64,000 nucleotides of DNA from an uncultured Anaerolineaceae bacterium (GTDB taxonomy: Bacteria; Chloroflexota; Anaerolineae; Aggregatilineales; Phototrophicaceae), in the NCBI GenBank assembly GCA_964556745.1, contig CAZKXW010000007.1, positions 21,028-85,027 on the forward strand, in the 5' to 3' direction. This document shows positions 2,659-30,228 of this stretch, in pieces (the stretch's first letter is position 1; the number at the start of each line of letters is the position of its first letter). A model generated the notes under the pieces. The model saw nothing but the letters and a program-made list of their open reading frames with translations. It had not been told where the DNA came from and made no database searches. A program made the translations under genes and the position numbers.

Positions 2659-4650
2659 GTGACTTCGAACCTGCAAAACCTTGCCATCAATACCATCCGC
2701 ACGCTGTCCATCGACGCGGTGCAGAAGGCCGACAGCGGCCATCCGGGTTTACCGATGGGGGCGGCGCCGATGGCCTACGCGCTGTGGACGAACCACCTGC
2801 GGCACAATCCGCGCAACCCCCAGTGGGCCAACCGTGACCGCTTCGTGCTGAGCGCGGGGCACGGCTCGATGCTGATTTACTCGCTGCTGCACCTGACGGG
2901 CTACGATGTGTCGCTGGACGAACTGAAGAACTTTCGGCAGTGGAAGAGCAAGACGCCCGGCCACCCGGAAGTGCATGAAACCCCCGGCGTTGAAACCACG
3001 ACTGGGCCGCTGGGACAGGGCGCGGCCAACTCGGTCGGGATGGCGCTGGCGGAGGCGTATCTGGCATCGGTCTACAACCGCCCCGGCTACGACATCGTCG
3101 ATCACTATACGTATGCGCTGGTGGGCGACGGCGATCTGATGGAAGGCGTGTGCATGGAGGCAGCGGCCATCGCCGGGGTGTGGGGGCTGAACAAGCTGAT
3201 CTGGCTGTTCGACGACAACCTGACGACGCTCGACGGCCCGGCGGCGATGATCGCCAGCGAAGACACCGATGCCCGTTTCCGGGCGTTGGGCTGGCACACC
3301 GTGCGCGTTGAGGACGGGAATGATGTCAGTGCCATCAACAACGCGATCTATGCGGCCAAAGCGATGAAGGACGCGCCGACGCTGATCTTGATCCGCACGG
3401 TAATCGGCTATGGCAGTCCGAACAAGGCGGGCACGAGCAAGGCGCACGGCTCGCCGCTGGGCAAGGACGAGATCAAGCTGGTCAAGGAGTTTTACGGCTG
3501 GCCGCAGGAAGACTTCTATATCCCCGGCGAGGCGCTGGAACATTTCCGCGAGGCGGTGGATCGCGGCGCGGAGATGCAGGCCAAGTGGGAGGCGCAGTTC
3601 GAGGCTTACCGCAAGGAATATCCTGAACTGGCAGCGCAGTTCGAGCAGGGGCAGCGCGGCGAACTCCCGGCGGGCTGGGACGCGGATATCCCGGTGTACG
3701 GCGAGGGCAAGAAGTACGCGACGCGGAATGTCAACGGGGATGTGCTGAACGCGATTGCGAAGCACATCCCGACCATGATCGGCGGCGACGCCGACCTGGC
3801 GGGCAGCACCAAGACGCTCATCAAGGGCGCGGAACATACGGGCAAGGGCAAAGCTGCCGCCCGCAACATCCGCTTCGGAGTGCGCGAGTTCGCCATGGGG
3901 GCGATTGCCAACGGGCTGGCGCTGCACGGCGGGATCATCAAACCCTACACGGCGACGTTCCTGACCTTCAGCGATTACATGCGGAATGCGATCCGCATGG
4001 GGGCGCTGATGGGCCTGCCGGTGGTCTACATCTTCACGCACGACAGCATCGGTTTGGGCGAAGATGGCCCGACGCACCAGCCGATTGAGCATGTGCCGAC
4101 GCTGAGCGCGATCCCTAACCTGACGGTTCTGCGCCCGGCGGATGCTAACGAGACCGCGGCGGCCTGGAAAGTCGCGATGACGCTCAAGACTCCGGCAGCG
4201 CTGATCTTCACACGGCAGGATCTGCCGGTGCTGGTGGGCGAGCATGTGCGCGAGGGGACGGCAAAGGGTGGCTATGTGCTGGCCGACTGCGAAGGGACGC
4301 CGCAGGTGATCCTGATTTCGCGGGGGAGCGAAGTTCACATCGCCCATGAGGCCTACAAGTCGCTGATGGCCGAAGGAGTCCGCGTGCGGTTGGTCTCGAT
4401 GCCGTCGTGGAATCTGTTCGACCAGCAGAGCGCGGCCTACAAAGAGAGCGTGCTGCCGAAGGCGGTCCGCGCGCGCGTGAGCATCGAAGCGGCGGCGACG
4501 ATGGGATGGGATCGCTACGTGGGGCTGGACGGCATCGTGCTGGGGATCGACCGTTTTGGGGCGAGCGCGCCGTATGAAATCCTGTACCGGGAGTACGGGA
4601 TGACGGCCGAGGCGGTCATCCAGGCGGCCAAGTCGTTAATTCAGAATTGA
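2659..4650 (+). CDS. tkt: transketolase
   Basis: Motifs [31 protein letters not shown] and [19 protein letters not shown] start after AGGAGG. Confidence 0.97.
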
Positions 4651-19739: not shown

Positions 19740-20534
19740 ATGCCCTCTCTATATACGACAATCGGCCCCTGGACGTTGCAGACCTTCACCTGGCTGGTGG
19801 CGGCGGCGGTTCTGGTCAGTTTGGCGCTGGCGCGGCGGCAGAGCCGCGGCGCGGTCGGCATCGACACGCTGCTGGCGGCGCTGGTTGGCGCGGTGATCGG
19901 AGCGCGGGCGCTGCATGTCGGCCTGCGCTGGGATTATTTCCAGGCGGCGCTCGCCGAAGCTGCCAACCTCGCCGCCGGCGGAATGAGCTGGCACGGCGCC
20001 GTTCTGGGTGGGCTGTTCGGGCTGGCGGCGATGCGGCAGATCGAGCGGCGGCGCGGTGTGTCGGTCTCGTTCAGCGCGGCGCTGGATGCGCTGGCCCTGG
20101 CCCTACCCCTCATCGGCCTGGCAAGCTGGACGGGCTGTATCGCCGCCGGCTGCGGATGGGGCCGGGAGGTGGATACCCTGGCGACCGCTCCGGCCTGGTT
20201 GGTCTGGGAGAGCATCGATGTTTACGGCATCCCGGCTCCGCGCTTCAGCACGCAGCGCTTCGGCATCGTCCTGTGCGGCGTCGTGCTGCTGATTCTGGTC
20301 GTGCTCTACGGCCGGCGGTTGGGTGAGGGCCGGCGTTTCTGGATTGGGCTGGCGCTGCTCAGCCTGGGGATGTTCGTCATTGGATTCTTCCGTGCCGATC
20401 CGGTGGCTTTCCTGTTCGGGCTGCGGGCCGATCAAGGGCTGGATGTGGCCTTGCTGCTGATGAGCCTGTGGGCGGCCCGCCGGAGAAATGCGTTCAGCCG
20501 CACAGTCTCCACGCCGCAGCATCACGCCCCGTGA
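19740..20534 (+). CDS. prolipoprotein diacylglyceryl transferase (Lgt)-family membrane protein, divergent
   Basis: GARALHV, GGMSWHGAVLGG, GC...GCGWG and FFRAD; multiple TM helices. Confidence 0.75.
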   Translation: MPSLYTTIGPWTLQTFTWLVAAAVLVSLALARRQSRGAVGIDTLLAALVGAVIGARALHVGLRWDYFQAALAEAANLAAGGMSWHGAVLGGLFGLAAMRQIERRRGVSVSFSAALDALALALPLIGLASWTGCIAAGCGWGREVDTLATAPAWLVWESIDVYGIPAPRFSTQRFGIVLCGVVLLILVVLYGRRLGEGRRFWIGLALLSLGMFVIGFFRADPVAFLFGLRADQGLDVALLLMSLWAARRRNAFSRTVSTPQHHAP

Positions 20535-20569
20535 CGACAATCCCAATGCCGCCCATCCCCATTGCAGTC

Positions 20570-21193
20570 TTATGGCAGCGTGGTGAACTCCTCAAGATAC
20601 GAATCCAGGTCGGATTCGCGCAGTTCCCCTAAGTGCCGGTAGCGGATCGTGCCGCCGGGATCGATCACGTAGGTGGTCGGCATGACCCGCACATCGTAGG
20701 CGTTGTAGACATCCAGCGACGAGTCTAACAGGATCGTCAGCCCGGAGATGCCGTTGTCATCCAGGTACGTCTGAATCTGCTCCGGCGTCTCGTTGACATT
20801 GACCGCCAGGATGACCGCCCCGTTCTCGCCCTGGCGTTCCTGGAAGCCTTGCAGCGCGGGCAGTTCCCGCTGGCAAGGCACGCACCATGTTGCCCAGAAA
20901 TTCACAAAGACGACTCGACCGCGCAGGCTCTCCAGGTCATAGCTTTGCCCGTCCAGCCCGCTCAGGACGAAGCGCGGCGCGGGCTGGTCGATCAGTCCGC
21001 GGCCCTGCGGCACGATGGCTTCCAGCGTGGGCTGGGAATTGACGGCCTGCGGACGGGACGCCTCGGAGAGCGCCATCACCAGCGCCGCGATGATCCCCAG
21101 CACCGGGAAGATCACGAACAGGATCAGCACCGGAGCGGGGCGGCCGTGCGGCGGAACTGGCGGCGGTTGGGGAGTGATTTCGGGAACGTTCAT
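20570..21193 (-). CDS. TlpA/ResA-family thiol-disulfide oxidoreductase, membrane anchored
   Basis: One N-terminal TM helix; NFWATWCVPC and MPTTYVID. Confidence 0.92.
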   Translation of the reverse strand: MNVPEITPQPPPVPPHGRPAPVLILFVIFPVLGIIAALVMALSEASRPQAVNSQPTLEAIVPQGRGLIDQPAPRFVLSGLDGQSYDLESLRGRVVFVNFWATWCVPCQRELPALQGFQERQGENGAVILAVNVNETPEQIQTYLDDNGISGLTILLDSSLDVYNAYDVRVMPTTYVIDPGGTIRYRHLGELRESDLDSYLEEFTTLP

Positions 21194-21205
21194 GATGATC
21201 CGGTC

Positions 21206-22726
21206 TCAGGGAACCCAGCGGGATAGAAAAGCATCGTTAGAAACTTTGACCAGCCTATTGTTAGTCAGGTCCAGCGTCCAGACTTCCGGCAGGCCGGGGT
21301 TATTCGGATCCTCCATCGCCACCGGGTCGGGGAACCGCTGGATGACCAACTGTGTGCCAGTCGGGTCGAGCGAGAACAGGCCGTTCTGGTACAGCGGATC
21401 GTACAGCAGCGTTTCGACGCTGCCGTCGCTCGGATCAAGCCTGTAAAGCTGCTTGCCGCGCGTGAAACGGCTGTCGAGATAGCGCCGGGCAATCACCAGG
21501 AAGGAGCCATCAGGACTCCAGACCGCCGCATCATCATCGACCGCTTCCGGCGGAAAACTCAGCGGTCGGATTTCATTGGCGGCCAGATCGACCAGTTCCA
21601 GATTGGTGAAGGCCTGGTTTTCGGTCAGGACGGTCTTGGGATACACCAGTTGAGTCCCATCCGGTGAGAGTTCGCCGGAGTTGCCGTAATTGCTGGGAAT
21701 CAGCACCGTGGTCTCGTCGCGGAAGTCGTAGACCAGGATGCTCATCGTGCTGGAGTCGAACACGGCCACGCGGTTGCCATCACCCGACCAGCGCAGCCCG
21801 TAGCCCAGAATCTGCGAGTCGCTGAACAGTGGGCGGTTGGTATAGGGCTGCGTCGTTAGATCGACGACCCAGATGCGCGTCGGGCTGATCCCGACCTGCC
21901 CGCCCAGATCGCTGTTAAGATCGACCCGCTCGTAGGCGATCCTCTGCCCATCTGGCCGCCAGACCGGACGGGCGCACTCCGCGTCCGAGCAGTCGGTGAT
22001 CTGCTGAATCCCGCCCGTGTCCAGATCGAGCAGCTTGATGTCCATCGTCCCAGTGCTGCTGTTGCGCTCCGAAAAGGCGATCTGGCTCCCGTCCGGGCTG
22101 ACGCTGTAGTCGTAGATGCCCGACGGGCTGAAGGTGATCTGCCGCGCGCTGGAGGGATCCGCCGGGTCTGTAATCCAGATGTTGAACGGTGGGCGGCTGG
22201 ACGGGGCCAGATAAGCCACCCGCGGCCTGCGCACCGTAAAGCGGTAGCGGTACTCATCCAGCACCAGGCGGCCGGTCTCGCTGGCTGCGCCGGATTCCAG
22301 GATGACCTGATAGCTGCTGCCGGGGCGGAGCGCCTGATCCGGCTGGAACCGCAGCGTCGCTCCCTTCCAGGTGACCGTCCCGCTGACCTCCGCCAGCACA
22401 TCAGGCGGCGTGGCAGCAGCGCTCTGCTCCGGCGCAATCTCGATGAGGCGCAGCCGCGCGGCTGCGCTCTCCCGGTTCATGGCCTCGCTGAATTCGATCA
22501 GCACCGCGCTGGTGCTGCGAGCCGTTCCCAACGGGCTGACCCGTTTGAGCGTCACCCCCACCCGGTCGCCGACCAGCAGCGTCACGCCGATCAACCCGAC
22601 CAGCAGCAGCAGAATCGCGCCGACAATCCGGTCAAAACGGGTGAAGCGGAACCGGGTCAGGAATGAAGCCAGGGGCGAATCGGGCGGTTGAGCGACGGGC
22701 AGCGGCGGTTGGTTGTCCACCTGCAT
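21206..22726 (-). CDS. membrane-anchored Ig-like (Big_5) plus TolB-like beta-propeller protein
   Basis: TM helix; IEFSEAM...LRFQP...L.PG..YQV; repeated SPDG/WSPDG blades. Confidence 0.8.
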   Translation of the reverse strand: MQVDNQPPLPVAQPPDSPLASFLTRFRFTRFDRIVGAILLLLVGLIGVTLLVGDRVGVTLKRVSPLGTARSTSAVLIEFSEAMNRESAAARLRLIEIAPEQSAAATPPDVLAEVSGTVTWKGATLRFQPDQALRPGSSYQVILESGAASETGRLVLDEYRYRFTVRRPRVAYLAPSSRPPFNIWITDPADPSSARQITFSPSGIYDYSVSPDGSQIAFSERNSSTGTMDIKLLDLDTGGIQQITDCSDAECARPVWRPDGQRIAYERVDLNSDLGGQVGISPTRIWVVDLTTQPYTNRPLFSDSQILGYGLRWSGDGNRVAVFDSSTMSILVYDFRDETTVLIPSNYGNSGELSPDGTQLVYPKTVLTENQAFTNLELVDLAANEIRPLSFPPEAVDDDAAVWSPDGSFLVIARRYLDSRFTRGKQLYRLDPSDGSVETLLYDPLYQNGLFSLDPTGTQLVIQRFPDPVAMEDPNNPGLPEVWTLDLTNNRLVKVSNDAFLSRWVP

Positions 22727-26537: not shown

Positions 26538-27032
26538 TCAGTGTGCGTGGGAGATGGGCACGCCCATCATGCCAGCTAGCAGCCGCTCCATAGCCATTGT
26601 ATGGCTGCACACACCGCGGCTGTGGAAGAAATCGCAGTCGCAGTGCCACTTCTCGCTGGCGATGCCGAAGTTGTGATCGCTGTTTTCGCCGTGGAAGGTC
26701 ACGTCAAACGAAACGAACCGGATGCGGTCTTTTTCATCCGAGTAGCGCTTGGCTTTCTCGATATCGCTGACCACATTCTGGCCGGGGCCATAGGGCAGCG
26801 GGGCGCGCTTGAGCATCGGTTCAAGGAGTTTTTCCAGCGCCATGCAGTGCGGGCAGATGTGGTGGGACTGGAAGCCAGGGCAGGAGCAGTGCCAGCCATT
26901 TTCGTTGAAATCGACGATGTAGCTGTCGTTGTCACCGCGGAATTCGACCTGAAAAGCACGGAAGGTAATGCGGCGCGGTTCTTCAGCATAGCGGCGGGCT
27001 TTCTCGATCTTGCCGATCATCCCGTAGTCCAT
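26538..27032 (-). CDS. tandem SWIM zinc-finger protein
   Basis: Two ~80-aa repeats: IEKA.RY...F.G.N...WHC.C..F....C.H.MA.E; ATG after AGGAGG. Confidence 0.88.
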   Translation of the reverse strand: MDYGMIGKIEKARRYAEEPRRITFRAFQVEFRGDNDSYIVDFNENGWHCSCPGFQSHHICPHCMALEKLLEPMLKRAPLPYGPGQNVVSDIEKAKRYSDEKDRIRFVSFDVTFHGENSDHNFGIASEKWHCDCDFFHSRGVCSHTMAMERLLAGMMGVPISHAH

Positions 27033-27269
27033 AATGCGGGTTGCCTCCTTAGTAGGCCAGACTGTACGATATACTAAAAGCACACGCGCGGCCTGGAAGC
27101 TCCACAGCCGCGCGTGATTAAGTCCTGATGAAACGATGTTGGCCCGGATACACTCATGAGCCGCAGCTCTCCTTTTCGCCAACCTACTTCCAGTTTAAGC
27201 GGCTTTTAAGCGGTTGTCAAACGAAGGTCAAGGCAGCGTGGACACGAACCACACAGAATTGGGGGTACA

Positions 27270-27785
27270 ATGATCGGCGCGCAGGAACACCGTGAAAAAG
27301 CTGGCCGTGGCCCGGTGACAGCCGCGATTGTCACCGTCAGCGATACGCGCACGCCGGAGACCGACCAGAATCGGCGCTACCTGGAGGCGCGTCTGGGTGA
27401 ACTGGGCCATCAGGTGGCGGCCTACCGGCTGATCAAGGACGAACCGGATCAGGTCGAAGCGGTGATCGATGAACTGACAGCGATGCCCGGCGTGCAGATC
27501 ATCCTGTTCAACGGCGGAACAGGCATCAGCCCGCGCGATACGACCTACGATGTGGTCAGCCGCCGCCTGGAAAAGACGCTGCCGGGCTTCGGCGAACTCT
27601 TCCGCATGTTGAGTTATGCCGAAGTGGGCGCGGCCGCCATGTTCAGCCGGGCGACGGCGGGGGTCTGCCGGGGGACGCTGATCGTCTCGATGCCGGGCAG
27701 CCCCAACGCGGTACAGGTGGCGATGGAGAAACTGATCCTGCCAGAGATCAACCATCTGGCCTGGGAGATCGCCCGCAAGGGGTGA
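27270..27785 (+). CDS. moaB: molybdenum cofactor biosynthesis protein MoaB/MogA family
   Basis: Motifs [32 protein letters not shown] and PGSPNA. Confidence 0.92.
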
Positions 27786-27791
27786 GAAACG

Positions 27792-27825
27792 CCACAGAGA
27801 GGCCAGCGGCCTCTCTGTGGTTTTT
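27792..27825 (+). terminator. intrinsic terminator between convergent genes
   Basis: Perfect 13-bp stem CCACAGAGAGGCC-agc-GGCCTCTCTGTGG followed by TTTTT. Confidence 0.88.
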
Positions 27826-27839
27826 GTGCTATGGTGCTG

Positions 27840-28724
27840 TTAGCTGCCCGTCACCACGGGGAGTTCAGCGGCTTTCCAGGCAGCGAGGCCGCCAGCCATA
27901 TTGCGGACGTTAGTGTAGCCGAGCAGACCAAGCTGGGTGGCGACGATGCCGCCGCGATAGCTGGAAGCGCAGTAGACGACGATGTTGGCGTCCAGATCGG
28001 TGGGCATTTCGTCCAGGCGGGCGAAGAACTCGTCCACCCACACATGCGTCGCGCCTTCGATGTAGCCTTCGTCCCATTCCTTCTGACTGCGGACATCCAG
28101 CAGCAGGTCGGGCATGGTCTCGAACATCTCTTCAAAGAGGTCAGCAGGTTTGACCGCGCCCCAGTTTTCTGGCAGGTTGGCGATGTACGCGCCGACATAT
28201 TCGGCCAGCGCCGGGTCGATTTCGGCGGGCATTTCGCTCACTTCGGCGACGGCGGGTTCTTCCACGACCGGCAGTTCTTCGCCGACCCAGGCATCAAAAC
28301 CGCCCTTGAGGACTTTGACATTGGTGTAGCCCAGGATTTGCAGCGCAGTCATGCCGATGGTCGCGCGGAAACCGCCCTTGCAGACGACCACAATCGGAGC
28401 ATCCAGATCAGGCAGTACGTTGAGGTTCTCGCCCAGAGTGCGGAGCGGCACGTTGATCGCGCCTTCAATGATGCCGAAATCATCCACTTCCTTGACTTCA
28501 CGCACATCCAGGATGACCACATCCGGGTTCTCGGCCAGCATGACGGTGAAGTCTTCCACTGCCAGCAGGCCGTAGCCTTCCGGCAGTTTTTCGTTGTAGG
28601 CTTCCAGGCGTGGCATCAGCAGATCGTTGACAACATCGATCTCTTCGGTCGTCTGGGCGAAAGCCACCGTCGGCAGCAGCAGCATCGCCACAACCAGAAG
28701 CCGGATCAAAGTACGCATGTTCAC
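27840..28724 (-). CDS. exported tandem rhodanese-domain sulfurtransferase
   Basis: Signal peptide (..PTVAFA-Q); two domains with LDVR..E...G.IEGA and active-site loops CKGGFR and CASSYR. The start may be ATG 28718. Confidence 0.9.
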   Translation of the reverse strand: MNMRTLIRLLVVAMLLLPTVAFAQTTEEIDVVNDLLMPRLEAYNEKLPEGYGLLAVEDFTVMLAENPDVVILDVREVKEVDDFGIIEGAINVPLRTLGENLNVLPDLDAPIVVVCKGGFRATIGMTALQILGYTNVKVLKGGFDAWVGEELPVVEEPAVAEVSEMPAEIDPALAEYVGAYIANLPENWGAVKPADLFEEMFETMPDLLLDVRSQKEWDEGYIEGATHVWVDEFFARLDEMPTDLDANIVVYCASSYRGGIVATQLGLLGYTNVRNMAGGLAAWKAAELPVVTGS

Positions 28725-28800: not shown

Positions 28801-30141
28801 TCAGTCGGGCAGATCGCCCGGATCGACAATCACGTCCCGGTTGGCACGGCGCTCACTTCCATCGACTGCGCGCCGCGTCAGGAACAGGTCCTCGTTCTCG
28901 TGACAGGCATCACAGCTTTCGGTCTGGGGGGTGATGCGCTGGATGTTATGCGGCGTCGCGGGCACCCAGGTGGGCTGGTCATCGAAGTTCGGCAGCAGGT
29001 TTTCGCCGTAGAAGCTGAACGAGTCGGGCGCGATGGGTACATGGCGCACGGTCACGTACTCGTAAGGCCGTTCTTCGGTGGGATTCGGGTTGCGTCCAAT
29101 GTAGAAGCCCAGGAAGCTGTTTTCCACCGTGTAAAACGGGATGCCCTCTTCATTCTGCTCGACGTGGCAGTTCACGCAGTTGATGTACGTCGTGCTGTGG
29201 CAGACCTGGCATGAGAGATCATCCGGGTCATGAGCCGCGTGCATCTCGATCTCGGCGTCTTCATCACCGATCACGATATCCTCGTGGCAGTCCTGGCAGG
29301 CTGGTTCCTGCGCCCCGTCGTAGCGGCTGGTGACGCCGGGTTGAGCCATGCCGTGCATCGCATCGGCAGTATGGCACTCCATGCAGTCCATGCGCGCGCG
29401 GAAGTGAACATCGCTGGGCGCTTCTTCGTTCGCGCCGTAGTATTCATTTTTCACGCGGCTGCCGTGGCAGGCGGTGCACTGCCGCCCCATCGAGGGCGAC
29501 GGGCTGAAGACATGCCCGTTCACCAACCCGCCGCCGACGTTGGTCGGCTGGCTGACATGGCAGTCACCGCAGGAAGCATGACACTGATTGCAGTGATTAG
29601 ATTCCATTTCCTCGAGCGCGGCATGATTTTCAGGCGCGCTGCGGGCGTAGAGCGCAGCATCATACCCCGACAGGGTATTGTGCAGGCTGGCGAAAGCTGG
29701 CTCGGCCACGTCCACATGACAGCGGCCGCAGACTTCCGGCGTGGTAATGACTTCAGTCACGAGACCTTCGTGGGCGGCATCGAAATCATCCACCGATTGG
29801 CCGCCGTGGCATTCGGTGCAGTTGATATACGAATGAACGTCATCTCCAAACTTTTCGGCGTCGATCCAGACGCGCTCCCATGGCTCCACCGGAGCCACGG
29901 AACCCCCTCAGCCAGGCCCTGAAGACAGGGACTCGGCCTCCTCTTTTACCGGAATGGCTAACTCTTGTAACCGCGTCTGGTCGGTATGGCAGGCGAGACA
30001 TTCGGCATCTGTAAAGGGTGGGATGTCCTGAAGCGGACTGGCTCCAATGCGCGAAGGGGTGCTAACGAGAAGGGCGAACCCAACGGCGATCAGGGTGCTG
30101 CCTCCCGCGAGCAATGCCGAAAGCAGTCTGCGGTGTGGCAT
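28801..30141 (-). CDS. exported multiheme cytochrome c (11 CxxCH), probable selenoprotein with Sec at codon 78 (UGA at 29908-29910)
   Basis: ORFs 29908-30141 (signal peptide, CLACH) and 28801-29898 (10 CxxCH) are in frame: SSGPG-UGA-GGSVAPVEPWERV. A hairpin follows directly after the UGA. Confidence 0.82.
29876..29902 (-). promoter_or_regulatory. bacterial SECIS-like hairpin
   Basis: mRNA UUCCGUGGCUCC-GGU-GGAGCCAUGGGA forms a 12-bp stem (2 G-U pairs) with a G-led loop starting 18 nt after the UGA. Confidence 0.78.
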
Positions 30142-30228
30142 AGTCGGATCCTTTATGGGAAGGGCGCAAAATACTACAGTTTGACTTCCCAGTACCTTCA
30201 ACCCTATCAAAACCGCGCCGAGAGTCAT

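Follow-up and report, generated by a model that had tools for sequence, protein, structure and literature searches.

Not until 2026, with the description of MccSep (ExtKL), was it shown that multiheme cytochromes containing selenium drive sulfur respiration; the rhodanese ExtH is presumably linked to MccSep. Polysulfide is also the substrate of the molybdoenzyme PsrABC of Wolinella succinogenes, whose rhodanese partner we take to be Sud. MccSep (GSU2937-2936 of Geobacter sulfurreducens, NF040886) is a Sec-heme polysulfide reductase with a catalytic arginine, in which five hemes are followed by Sec325 on an Ig-like domain and a separate cysteine, Cys239, ligates heme 2 (PMC13510729). The gene considered here lies at 28801..30141, on the minus strand, of a 64,000-nucleotide stretch of DNA (the window) from an uncultured member of the Anaerolineae. 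Like MccSep (PMC13510729), the predicted product is a multiheme c-type cytochrome bound for export; its gene has an in-frame UGA followed by a SECIS-like hairpin, its selenocysteine is flanked by glycine, and both Sec and Cys forms exist. Unlike MccSep, it has 11 hemes, its selenocysteine (Sec78) falls between hemes 1 and 2, and it has no cysteine outside the CxxCH motifs. In TsdA and other His/Cys sulfur cytochromes, a chalcogen residue at the heme carries out S-S chemistry (PMC13510729), and the same arrangement is proposed for the window cytochrome; TsdA, however, is a diheme protein that uses cysteine, and it gave no match in the fold searches. By gene content the system resembles PsrABC with Sud (a catalytic subunit, an Fe-S protein, an NrfD-type anchor and an exported rhodanese), but the catalytic subunit would be a heme/Sec protein rather than a molybdoenzyme, an extra multiheme cytochrome is present, and no molybdopterin catalytic subunit was found among the recurrent neighbours of the cytochrome loci. 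Judged by inferred function and predicted fold, this is a seleno-cytochrome that works like MccSep and folds like octaheme tetrathionate reductase (OTR) of Shewanella oneidensis, and it is a member of neither family.

The family is apparently both widespread and unnamed. None of 55 aligned members matched NF040886 at E 0.01 and, together with the differing heme count and Sec position, this upholds the initial annotation in separating the family from ExtKL; no MccSep chain was listed in the fold searches, whose libraries may not include it. No NCBIfam family reached its cut-off for the window protein, and six distant members stood far below cut-off. A 2026 review recognises 119 selenoprotein families, three of them of cytochrome type, namely ExtKL, GSU2204 and a GenBank-annotated Sec form of OTR, WP_331457571.1 (PMC13188914 Table 1), and none of these three entries fits the window family by profile. 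A term search of the deep-Sep paper returned no mention of cytochrome or heme, and a literature search found no paper on the family or on a selenoprotein multiheme cytochrome in Chloroflexota, though other selenoprotein compilations could list it. The locus would represent a second seleno-cytochrome architecture, with no sequence match to MccSep and truncated in public annotation.

The in-frame TGA and its conservation

The two annotated pieces very likely form one gene in which UGA is read as selenocysteine. The cytochrome gene is the minus-strand frame of the interval, not the plus-strand frame; it runs for 446 codons from an ATG at 30141 to a terminal TGA at 28803-28801, and the two pieces are in frame across a TGA at codon 78 (29908..29910), as the initial annotation had proposed. 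This codon, the putative Sec codon, lies within a GxG-U-GG motif (context ...SLSSGPG-U-GGSVAPVEPWERV...) and is assigned from conservation and Cys homologues. Eleven CxxCH motifs were counted, at residues 48, 108, 138, 184, 191, 222, 253, 282, 311, 322 and 410, one upstream and ten downstream of the TGA, and the earlier placement of Sec78 between heme 1 and heme 2 of an 11-heme protein agrees with this count. A Shine-Dalgarno-like AAAGGA (30149..30154) lies 7 nt upstream of the ATG. Residues 1 to about 34 (30040..30141), judged by eye, form a basic and hydrophobic segment that could be a signal peptide or a membrane anchor, and in many homologues a lipoprotein-type cysteine takes its place.

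Gene callers begin the 365-aa downstream piece at a GTG (29896..29898), taken here to be a false start, which lies within the 5' arm of the hairpin described below. Had the TGA been a true stop, a small monoheme protein would be followed by a separate 10-heme protein restarted at this GTG, a reading that we consider very improbable. It draws on the annotation of two pieces by gene callers, on an SD-like GAGG 8-11 nt upstream of GTG 29898, overlapping the codon 78 TGA, and on the occurrence of GTG or TTG at this codon in 125 of 131 loci. Against it, the stop is invariably an in-frame TGA, and the GTG sits inside a conserved stem, with GTA, CTG or GCG in its place in the other 6 of the 131 loci. 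The second piece, moreover, does not have the export signal needed for heme attachment, and the Cys and Trp homologues, like the others, are each encoded by one open frame; the non-Sec and Trp homologues run uninterrupted from the signal through the last heme. The claim that only the upstream piece has a signal peptide and a ribosome-binding site stands for the export-type N-terminus, which is present there alone, and falls for the ribosome-binding site, given the GAGG before the GTG.

In homologous loci with a stop at the junction of hemes 1 and 2, the stop is TGA, never TAA or TAG, in 131 of 131 cases, counts that are not independent events, as the locus sets share members and come from related genomes. 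At their true ends, by contrast, these genes have TAA (83), TAG (34) or TGA (29). TGA lies within GxG-U-GG in all 52 distinct genome contexts with a junction stop; it is also present at the junction in nine of ten named genome loci and, among the best 80 of 554 confirmed metagenome loci, in 79. With TGA at these loci and cysteine in 10 of 37 full-length representatives (see below), the aligned position shows the TGA or Cys that the initial annotation had proposed to look for. The tenth named locus, L005, has offsetting indels (4160-4290) that flank the TGA, which is kept in another frame, and leave an open frame without a stop; these indels, probably an assembly error, account for P0005, the only near full-length GenBank protein among the close matches. 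Of the junction changes named beforehand as contradicting read-through, TAA and TAG were absent from the homologues and a frame offset was seen, in L005.

A sample of 201 genomes from the host's order contained the cytochrome gene in 75. This order-wide search gave 76 match rows that cover residue 78, and 71 of them contained one TGA, the position of which was verified in the fetched loci. Anaerolineae MAGs are the closest relatives, at 93% identity. Among the 120 best database proteins, 118 start just past the TGA site; for example, RefSeq WP_343422175.1 is a 425-aa 'hypothetical protein', and the 425-aa member of its cluster starts after the TGA. Two other accounts of the TGA were rejected: a nonsense mutation or sequencing error, because the TGA is conserved across 131 loci, and an altered code in which TGA specifies Trp, because the gene itself ends in TGA and uses TGG for Trp and the host has a tRNA-Sec. 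Taken on its sequence features, this is very likely a well-supported selenoprotein gene.

The hairpin and the selenocysteine machinery

Folding and homologue comparison identified a SECIS-like hairpin on the minus strand at 29876..29902, with a 12-bp stem that contains two G-U pairs and a GGU loop (29890-29888) located 17 nt after the TGA. The stem starts at the 6th base after the TGA, and the element noted in the initial annotation was thereby recovered. A 61-nt fold of the region has a free energy of -30.6 kcal/mol (z -4.08), none of 200 shuffles folded as well, and a 36-nt fold of equal strength was found in none of 800 sampled TGA-ended long frames of the host genome. The bSECIS rules, as worded in the Fig 2 legend of PMC13188914, are a loop of 3-9 nt, a stem of 4-16 bp, a G in the first two loop positions, a spacing of 16-37 nt and an MFE of -7.5 or lower; applied by hand in that form, all of them agree with the GGU loop, 12-bp stem, 17-nt spacing and -23.7 kcal/mol observed here. 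A hairpin by itself is nevertheless poor proof, since a loose scan of the host genome turned up 138 TGA sites accompanied by a stem of 8 bp or more, and the case for read-through rests on conservation, not on the hairpin alone.

Across 96 distinct homologue sequences, conservation is confined to the 6-8 loop-proximal pairs: the six beside the loop form in 91-96, the lower four in 19-51. Pairing occurs in 75.6% of cells at the true register versus 38-49% in slid controls, and 89 of the 96 sequences have a G in the first two loop positions. The search for compensatory changes, which the initial annotation had suggested, yielded one pair that swaps between G-C (55 sequences) and C-G (37), although this change alters amino acids too and the sequences compared are related. 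Synonymous choice is frozen: the Glu codon at +8 is GAG in 128 cases and GAA in 0, in contrast to the Glu codon at -8, which is GAG in 22 and GAA in 19.

The host assembly (94% complete, 157 contigs) encodes tRNA-Sec (selC), selB and selA, together with two cytochrome c assembly genes. The Sec machinery on which the proposal depends was therefore located for selA, selB and selC and not for selD, which was not found in this assembly; among 31 genomes, mostly relatives, selD scored over cut-off in 22. In the host's order, selA is present in 70 of the 75 genomes with the cytochrome gene versus 78 of the 126 without it. Four TGA-bearing genomes had neither selA nor selB over cut-off. Three of these carry other Sec genes, namely tRNA-Sec and a TGA-type selD in G433, a tRNA-Sec that shares a contig with the cytochrome gene in G527, and a TGA-type selD in G554. 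In the fourth, G512 (81% complete), none of the Sec genes were found. The host genome contains only two molybdopterin-oxidoreductase frames, neither with an internal stop, and no Sec-type formate dehydrogenase was found in it; the seleno-cytochrome may be a main reason the host keeps Sec decoding.

Genomic linkage to the Sec genes also bears on what the protein does. In 21 of the 75 genomes, picked by hand, selA lies on the same contig within about 15 kb of the cytochrome gene, and in G527 the tRNA-Sec is about 2.7 kb away; moreover, the LysR regulator linked to the cytochrome has a 'selenium metabolism-associated' model as its best match, at 207 bits for a cut-off of 250. These features would fit a role in selenium handling, in which selenite or polyselenide is reduced outside the membrane and the rhodanese acts as a selenium carrier for Sec synthesis or detoxification. 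We regard this as unlikely: their need for sel genes is often enough to explain why selenoprotein genes cluster with them, 3 of the 21 copies near selA belong to non-Sec paralogues, there are Cys forms, and eleven hemes with a quinol module suggest high-flux respiration rather than trace uptake, even though MccSep reduces selenite as well (PMC13510729).

Non-Sec forms, predicted fold and candidate active site

A profile search of 1.84 billion representatives returned 211 matches at E 1e-30 or better. The best 150 of these comprise 44 that begin immediately downstream of the Sec site, 37 full-length proteins, and a remainder of fragments or sequences without heme 1. Cysteine occupies the Sec column in 10 of the 37 full-length 50%-identity representatives (e.g. 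GEG-C-GG in P0208, at the protein level); of the other 27, 4 have a cysteine 1-2 columns away and the remainder have various residues. Cys forms are interleaved with truncated forms in a FastTree phylogeny of 98 sequences built with the Sec loop left out and rooted at the midpoint. No Cys form with DNA was recovered in a second, alignment-based phylum search, which returned the same 10 genomes. Named members include Deltaproteobacteria and Sulfurovum, look-alike clusters (318-452 aa) fall mainly in the Thermodesulfobacteriota, Chloroflexota, Spirochaetota and Fidelibacterota, and Sec outside the Chloroflexota is deduced only from the protein start sites of the 44 of 150 representatives. The seleno-cytochrome family itself extends beyond the Chloroflexota. 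Viral contigs yielded no relative, and a plasmid search with P0122 as query gave no match. Four family members (P0181, P0184, P0185 and P0226) are extended to 16-19 heme motifs, and a distant homologue, L021 (G044), has 13 motifs, no Sec loop and a hydrophobic C-terminal anchor.

Five Anaerolineae homologues do not have the TGA, one of them carrying Trp and four having lost the motif; in three of the latter genomes a TGA copy persists at another locus. In the Trp lineage (L064:4001-5521 from G434, L104 and the 43-member P0118 cluster), GEG-U-GG is replaced by GEG-W-GS, one residue shorter, and His183 is lost, while the rhodanese, the Fe-S/NrfD module and selA are kept. This lineage is a natural Sec-less control. 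The warning in the initial annotation that Trp, Arg or Gly at the site would speak against selenocysteine therefore applies to one lineage, with Trp (L064, L104), that has lost His183 too, and distant homologues instead have Cys. The four paralogues without the Sec loop (L065-L068, from G558, G564, G471 and G570) are also missing one or two heme motifs and no longer have a rhodanese beside them; three of them lie about 5-6 kb from selA, beside cytochrome and NrfD genes, with a Sec copy elsewhere. These paralogues may serve only as electron wires.

An AlphaFold model, computed with Cys for Sec and no hemes, reached a pLDDT of 88.6 and a pTM of 0.84, with 73-76 over the Sec loop. The best structural match among 48,161 chains was OTR of S. 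oneidensis (1sp3; Z 10.1, rmsd 4.4, 263 aligned residues, model 65-411 on chain 1-433), the next having a Z of 4.6, and Foldseek also ranked 1sp3 first, if weakly (E 0.057). Sequence searches of the PDB gave only generic CxxCH matches, with 1sp3 absent among the matches listed. In contrast to OTR, the window protein has 11 rather than 8 hemes, shares 16% identity with it and places the Sec loop N-terminal to the aligned part. The catalytic heme of OTR lies in its N-terminal module, according to bioRxiv 10.1101/2022.02.24.481543. The profile TIGR04315 (OTR) gave weak matches to 4 of 55 members, with a best E of 2.5e-5, and the score for P0196 was 34 bits against a curated cut-off of 375. Under the heme numbering that we assume for OTR, the catalytic heme of the N-terminal module fits heme 4 here by offset.

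Ten histidines outside the motifs (103, 124, 154, 210, 246, 263, 301, 304, 367 and 398) are invariant in 49 Sec forms, one short of the 11 hemes. Among the features kept in Sec forms and lost in non-Sec paralogues are the GxG-U-GG loop, Y160, H183, H188, M218 and R229, a pattern that points to heme 4 as the catalytic site. The candidate catalytic heme motif, C184-x-x-C187-H188, and the adjoining His183 occupy 29578..29595 on the minus strand and are put forward from conservation. His183 is found in 48 of 49 Sec forms and in 0 of 6 non-Sec forms, and H188 is lost in 3 of 5 non-Sec Anaerolineae paralogues. His183 is not general in the wider family, however, being present in 16 of the 34 truncated forms and 2 of the 10 with Cys, whereas Arg229 (29455..29457, minus strand), a candidate anion-binding residue by conservation, is kept throughout the Sec (15 of 15) and truncated forms (34 of 34), in 7 of 10 Cys forms and in 7 of 25 others. 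In these alignments, it is R229 that tracks the chalcogen residue across the whole family, and H183 does not.

The fold raises the alternative that the protein, like OTR, reduces thiosulfate, tetrathionate or nitrite at a heme with a free coordination site, Sec having an accessory role. Ten invariant spare histidines for 11 hemes would indeed leave one site open, thiosulfate is accepted by rhodaneses, and OTR is described as promiscuous. This nevertheless seems improbable, as TIGR04315 falls so far under its cut-off and as Arg229 and the rhodanese track the Sec/Cys residue. The ligand of the catalytic heme in OTR we take to be lysine; among the three lysines of the query, compared without a residue-level alignment to 1sp3, none is conserved. 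The same shortage of histidines, with no spare cysteine, also permits Sec78 to be the sixth ligand of the catalytic heme. This would make a natural His/selenolate-ligated c-type heme, with ligand and nucleophile in one residue, and we advance it only tentatively. If Sec78 does ligate the heme, this heme would lie at the core of a molybdenum-free polysulfide respiration chain that reaches across the Chloroflexota, Desulfobacterota and other phyla, and the Cys orthologues would carry TsdA-like His/Cys hemes. The family offers a direct test of selenolate as a natural heme ligand.

The rhodanese partner, the neighbourhood and the proposed chemistry

A two-domain, apparently exported rhodanese of 292 aa with a signal-like N-terminus (27840..28718, minus strand; Pfam PF00581 twice) lies 82 nt downstream of the cytochrome gene, and the two are probably co-transcribed. 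Its active-site cysteines are C113 in CKGGFR and C250 in CASSYR, and both catalytic cysteines are invariant in 41 aligned rhodanese sequences, the N-termini of which look like signal peptides. A 14-bp terminator-like hairpin (27791..27821), between the rhodanese and a convergent moaB-like gene, likely marks the end of the cytochrome-rhodanese unit, although such a hairpin is weak evidence on its own (1 found versus 2.1 expected by chance). The initial annotation had cited a rhodanese link from Geobacter, and such a link holds in this family: among the 109 loci in which the downstream DNA extends for 1.2 kb or more, 102 have a rhodanese of at least two domains directly downstream or fused, and of the 7 that do not, 4 are non-Sec paralogues. 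In-frame fusions of the rhodanese to the cytochrome, at either end, occur in L019, L070 and P0123.

A further module recurs near the cytochrome and consists of a multiheme cytochrome, a DsrO-like Fe-S protein (218 bits, cut-off 200) and an NrfD anchor. Among 55 loci that span 8 kb or more, 22 have an Fe-S or NrfD gene and 34 a LysR regulator, and in P0122 a cytochrome b domain is fused to the family member. In the host, the Fe-S/NrfD module is not adjacent to the cytochrome in the window and is found on other contigs, C127 and C9. These loci (G000:C127:5000-10246, L168, and G000:C9:71900-72785, L169) encode 4-, 9- and 9-heme cytochromes, the Fe-S protein and NrfD, which the assembly splits over the ends of the two contigs, and a cytochrome c assembly gene is on the same contig as L168.

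Sulfane-sulfur chemistry in the reducing direction is the probable role of this system, as read from its genes. On balance, the best explanation would be an exported 11-heme seleno-cytochrome that reduces sulfane sulfur, as polysulfide or rhodanese-bound persulfide, to sulfide, with substrate and direction both inferred. The steps are suggested by gene context, conservation and the MccSep precedent (PMC13510729). The membrane NrfD/Fe-S/cytochrome module would take electrons from quinol and load the heme chain, while the exported rhodanese would bind polysulfide sulfur as a cysteine persulfide. The selenolate of Sec78, on a glycine-rich loop that would reach heme 4 with His183 and Arg229 nearby, could then attack the S-S bond, either next to this heme or while bound to it, and R229 would bind the anion. 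Two heme electrons would cleave the Se-S adduct and release HS-. The layout would be that of polysulfide respiration with a seleno-cytochrome in place of the molybdenum subunit. If this function is true, many Anaerolineae seen as fermenters have a sulfur-respiring route missed by marker-gene surveys.

The same selenoprotein and partner might instead run oxidatively, with sulfide or sulfane sulfur being oxidised and the electrons passed to the quinone pool via the Fe-S/NrfD module, although we judge this to be rather unlikely. The gene content is identical for either direction, and rhodaneses carry sulfur or selenium either way, which counts against the direction assigned here. The host also has a second Fe-S/NrfD set on C14, beside a 1116-codon molybdopterin-family frame, which may be an alternative complex III and so point to possible aerobic respiration; furthermore, TsdA-type His/Cys hemes oxidise sulfur compounds (PMC13510729). 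However, the nearest fold (OTR) and the nearest chemistry (MccSep) both belong to reductases, and sulfane-sulfur reduction remains the reading that we prefer.

Other genes lie near the cytochrome in the window and in related loci. A VKOR-domain protein is encoded divergently beside the cytochrome gene in two complete genomes (L080:4542-5738 and L081). In the window, a SWIM zinc-finger protein (26538-27182) and the moaB-like gene (27270-27785) are ordinary neighbours that do not recur in the compared loci, and an Lgt-like protein, a ResA/TlpA-like thioredoxin and a TolB-like propeller protein are encoded at 19740-22726, 6-9 kb from the cytochrome.
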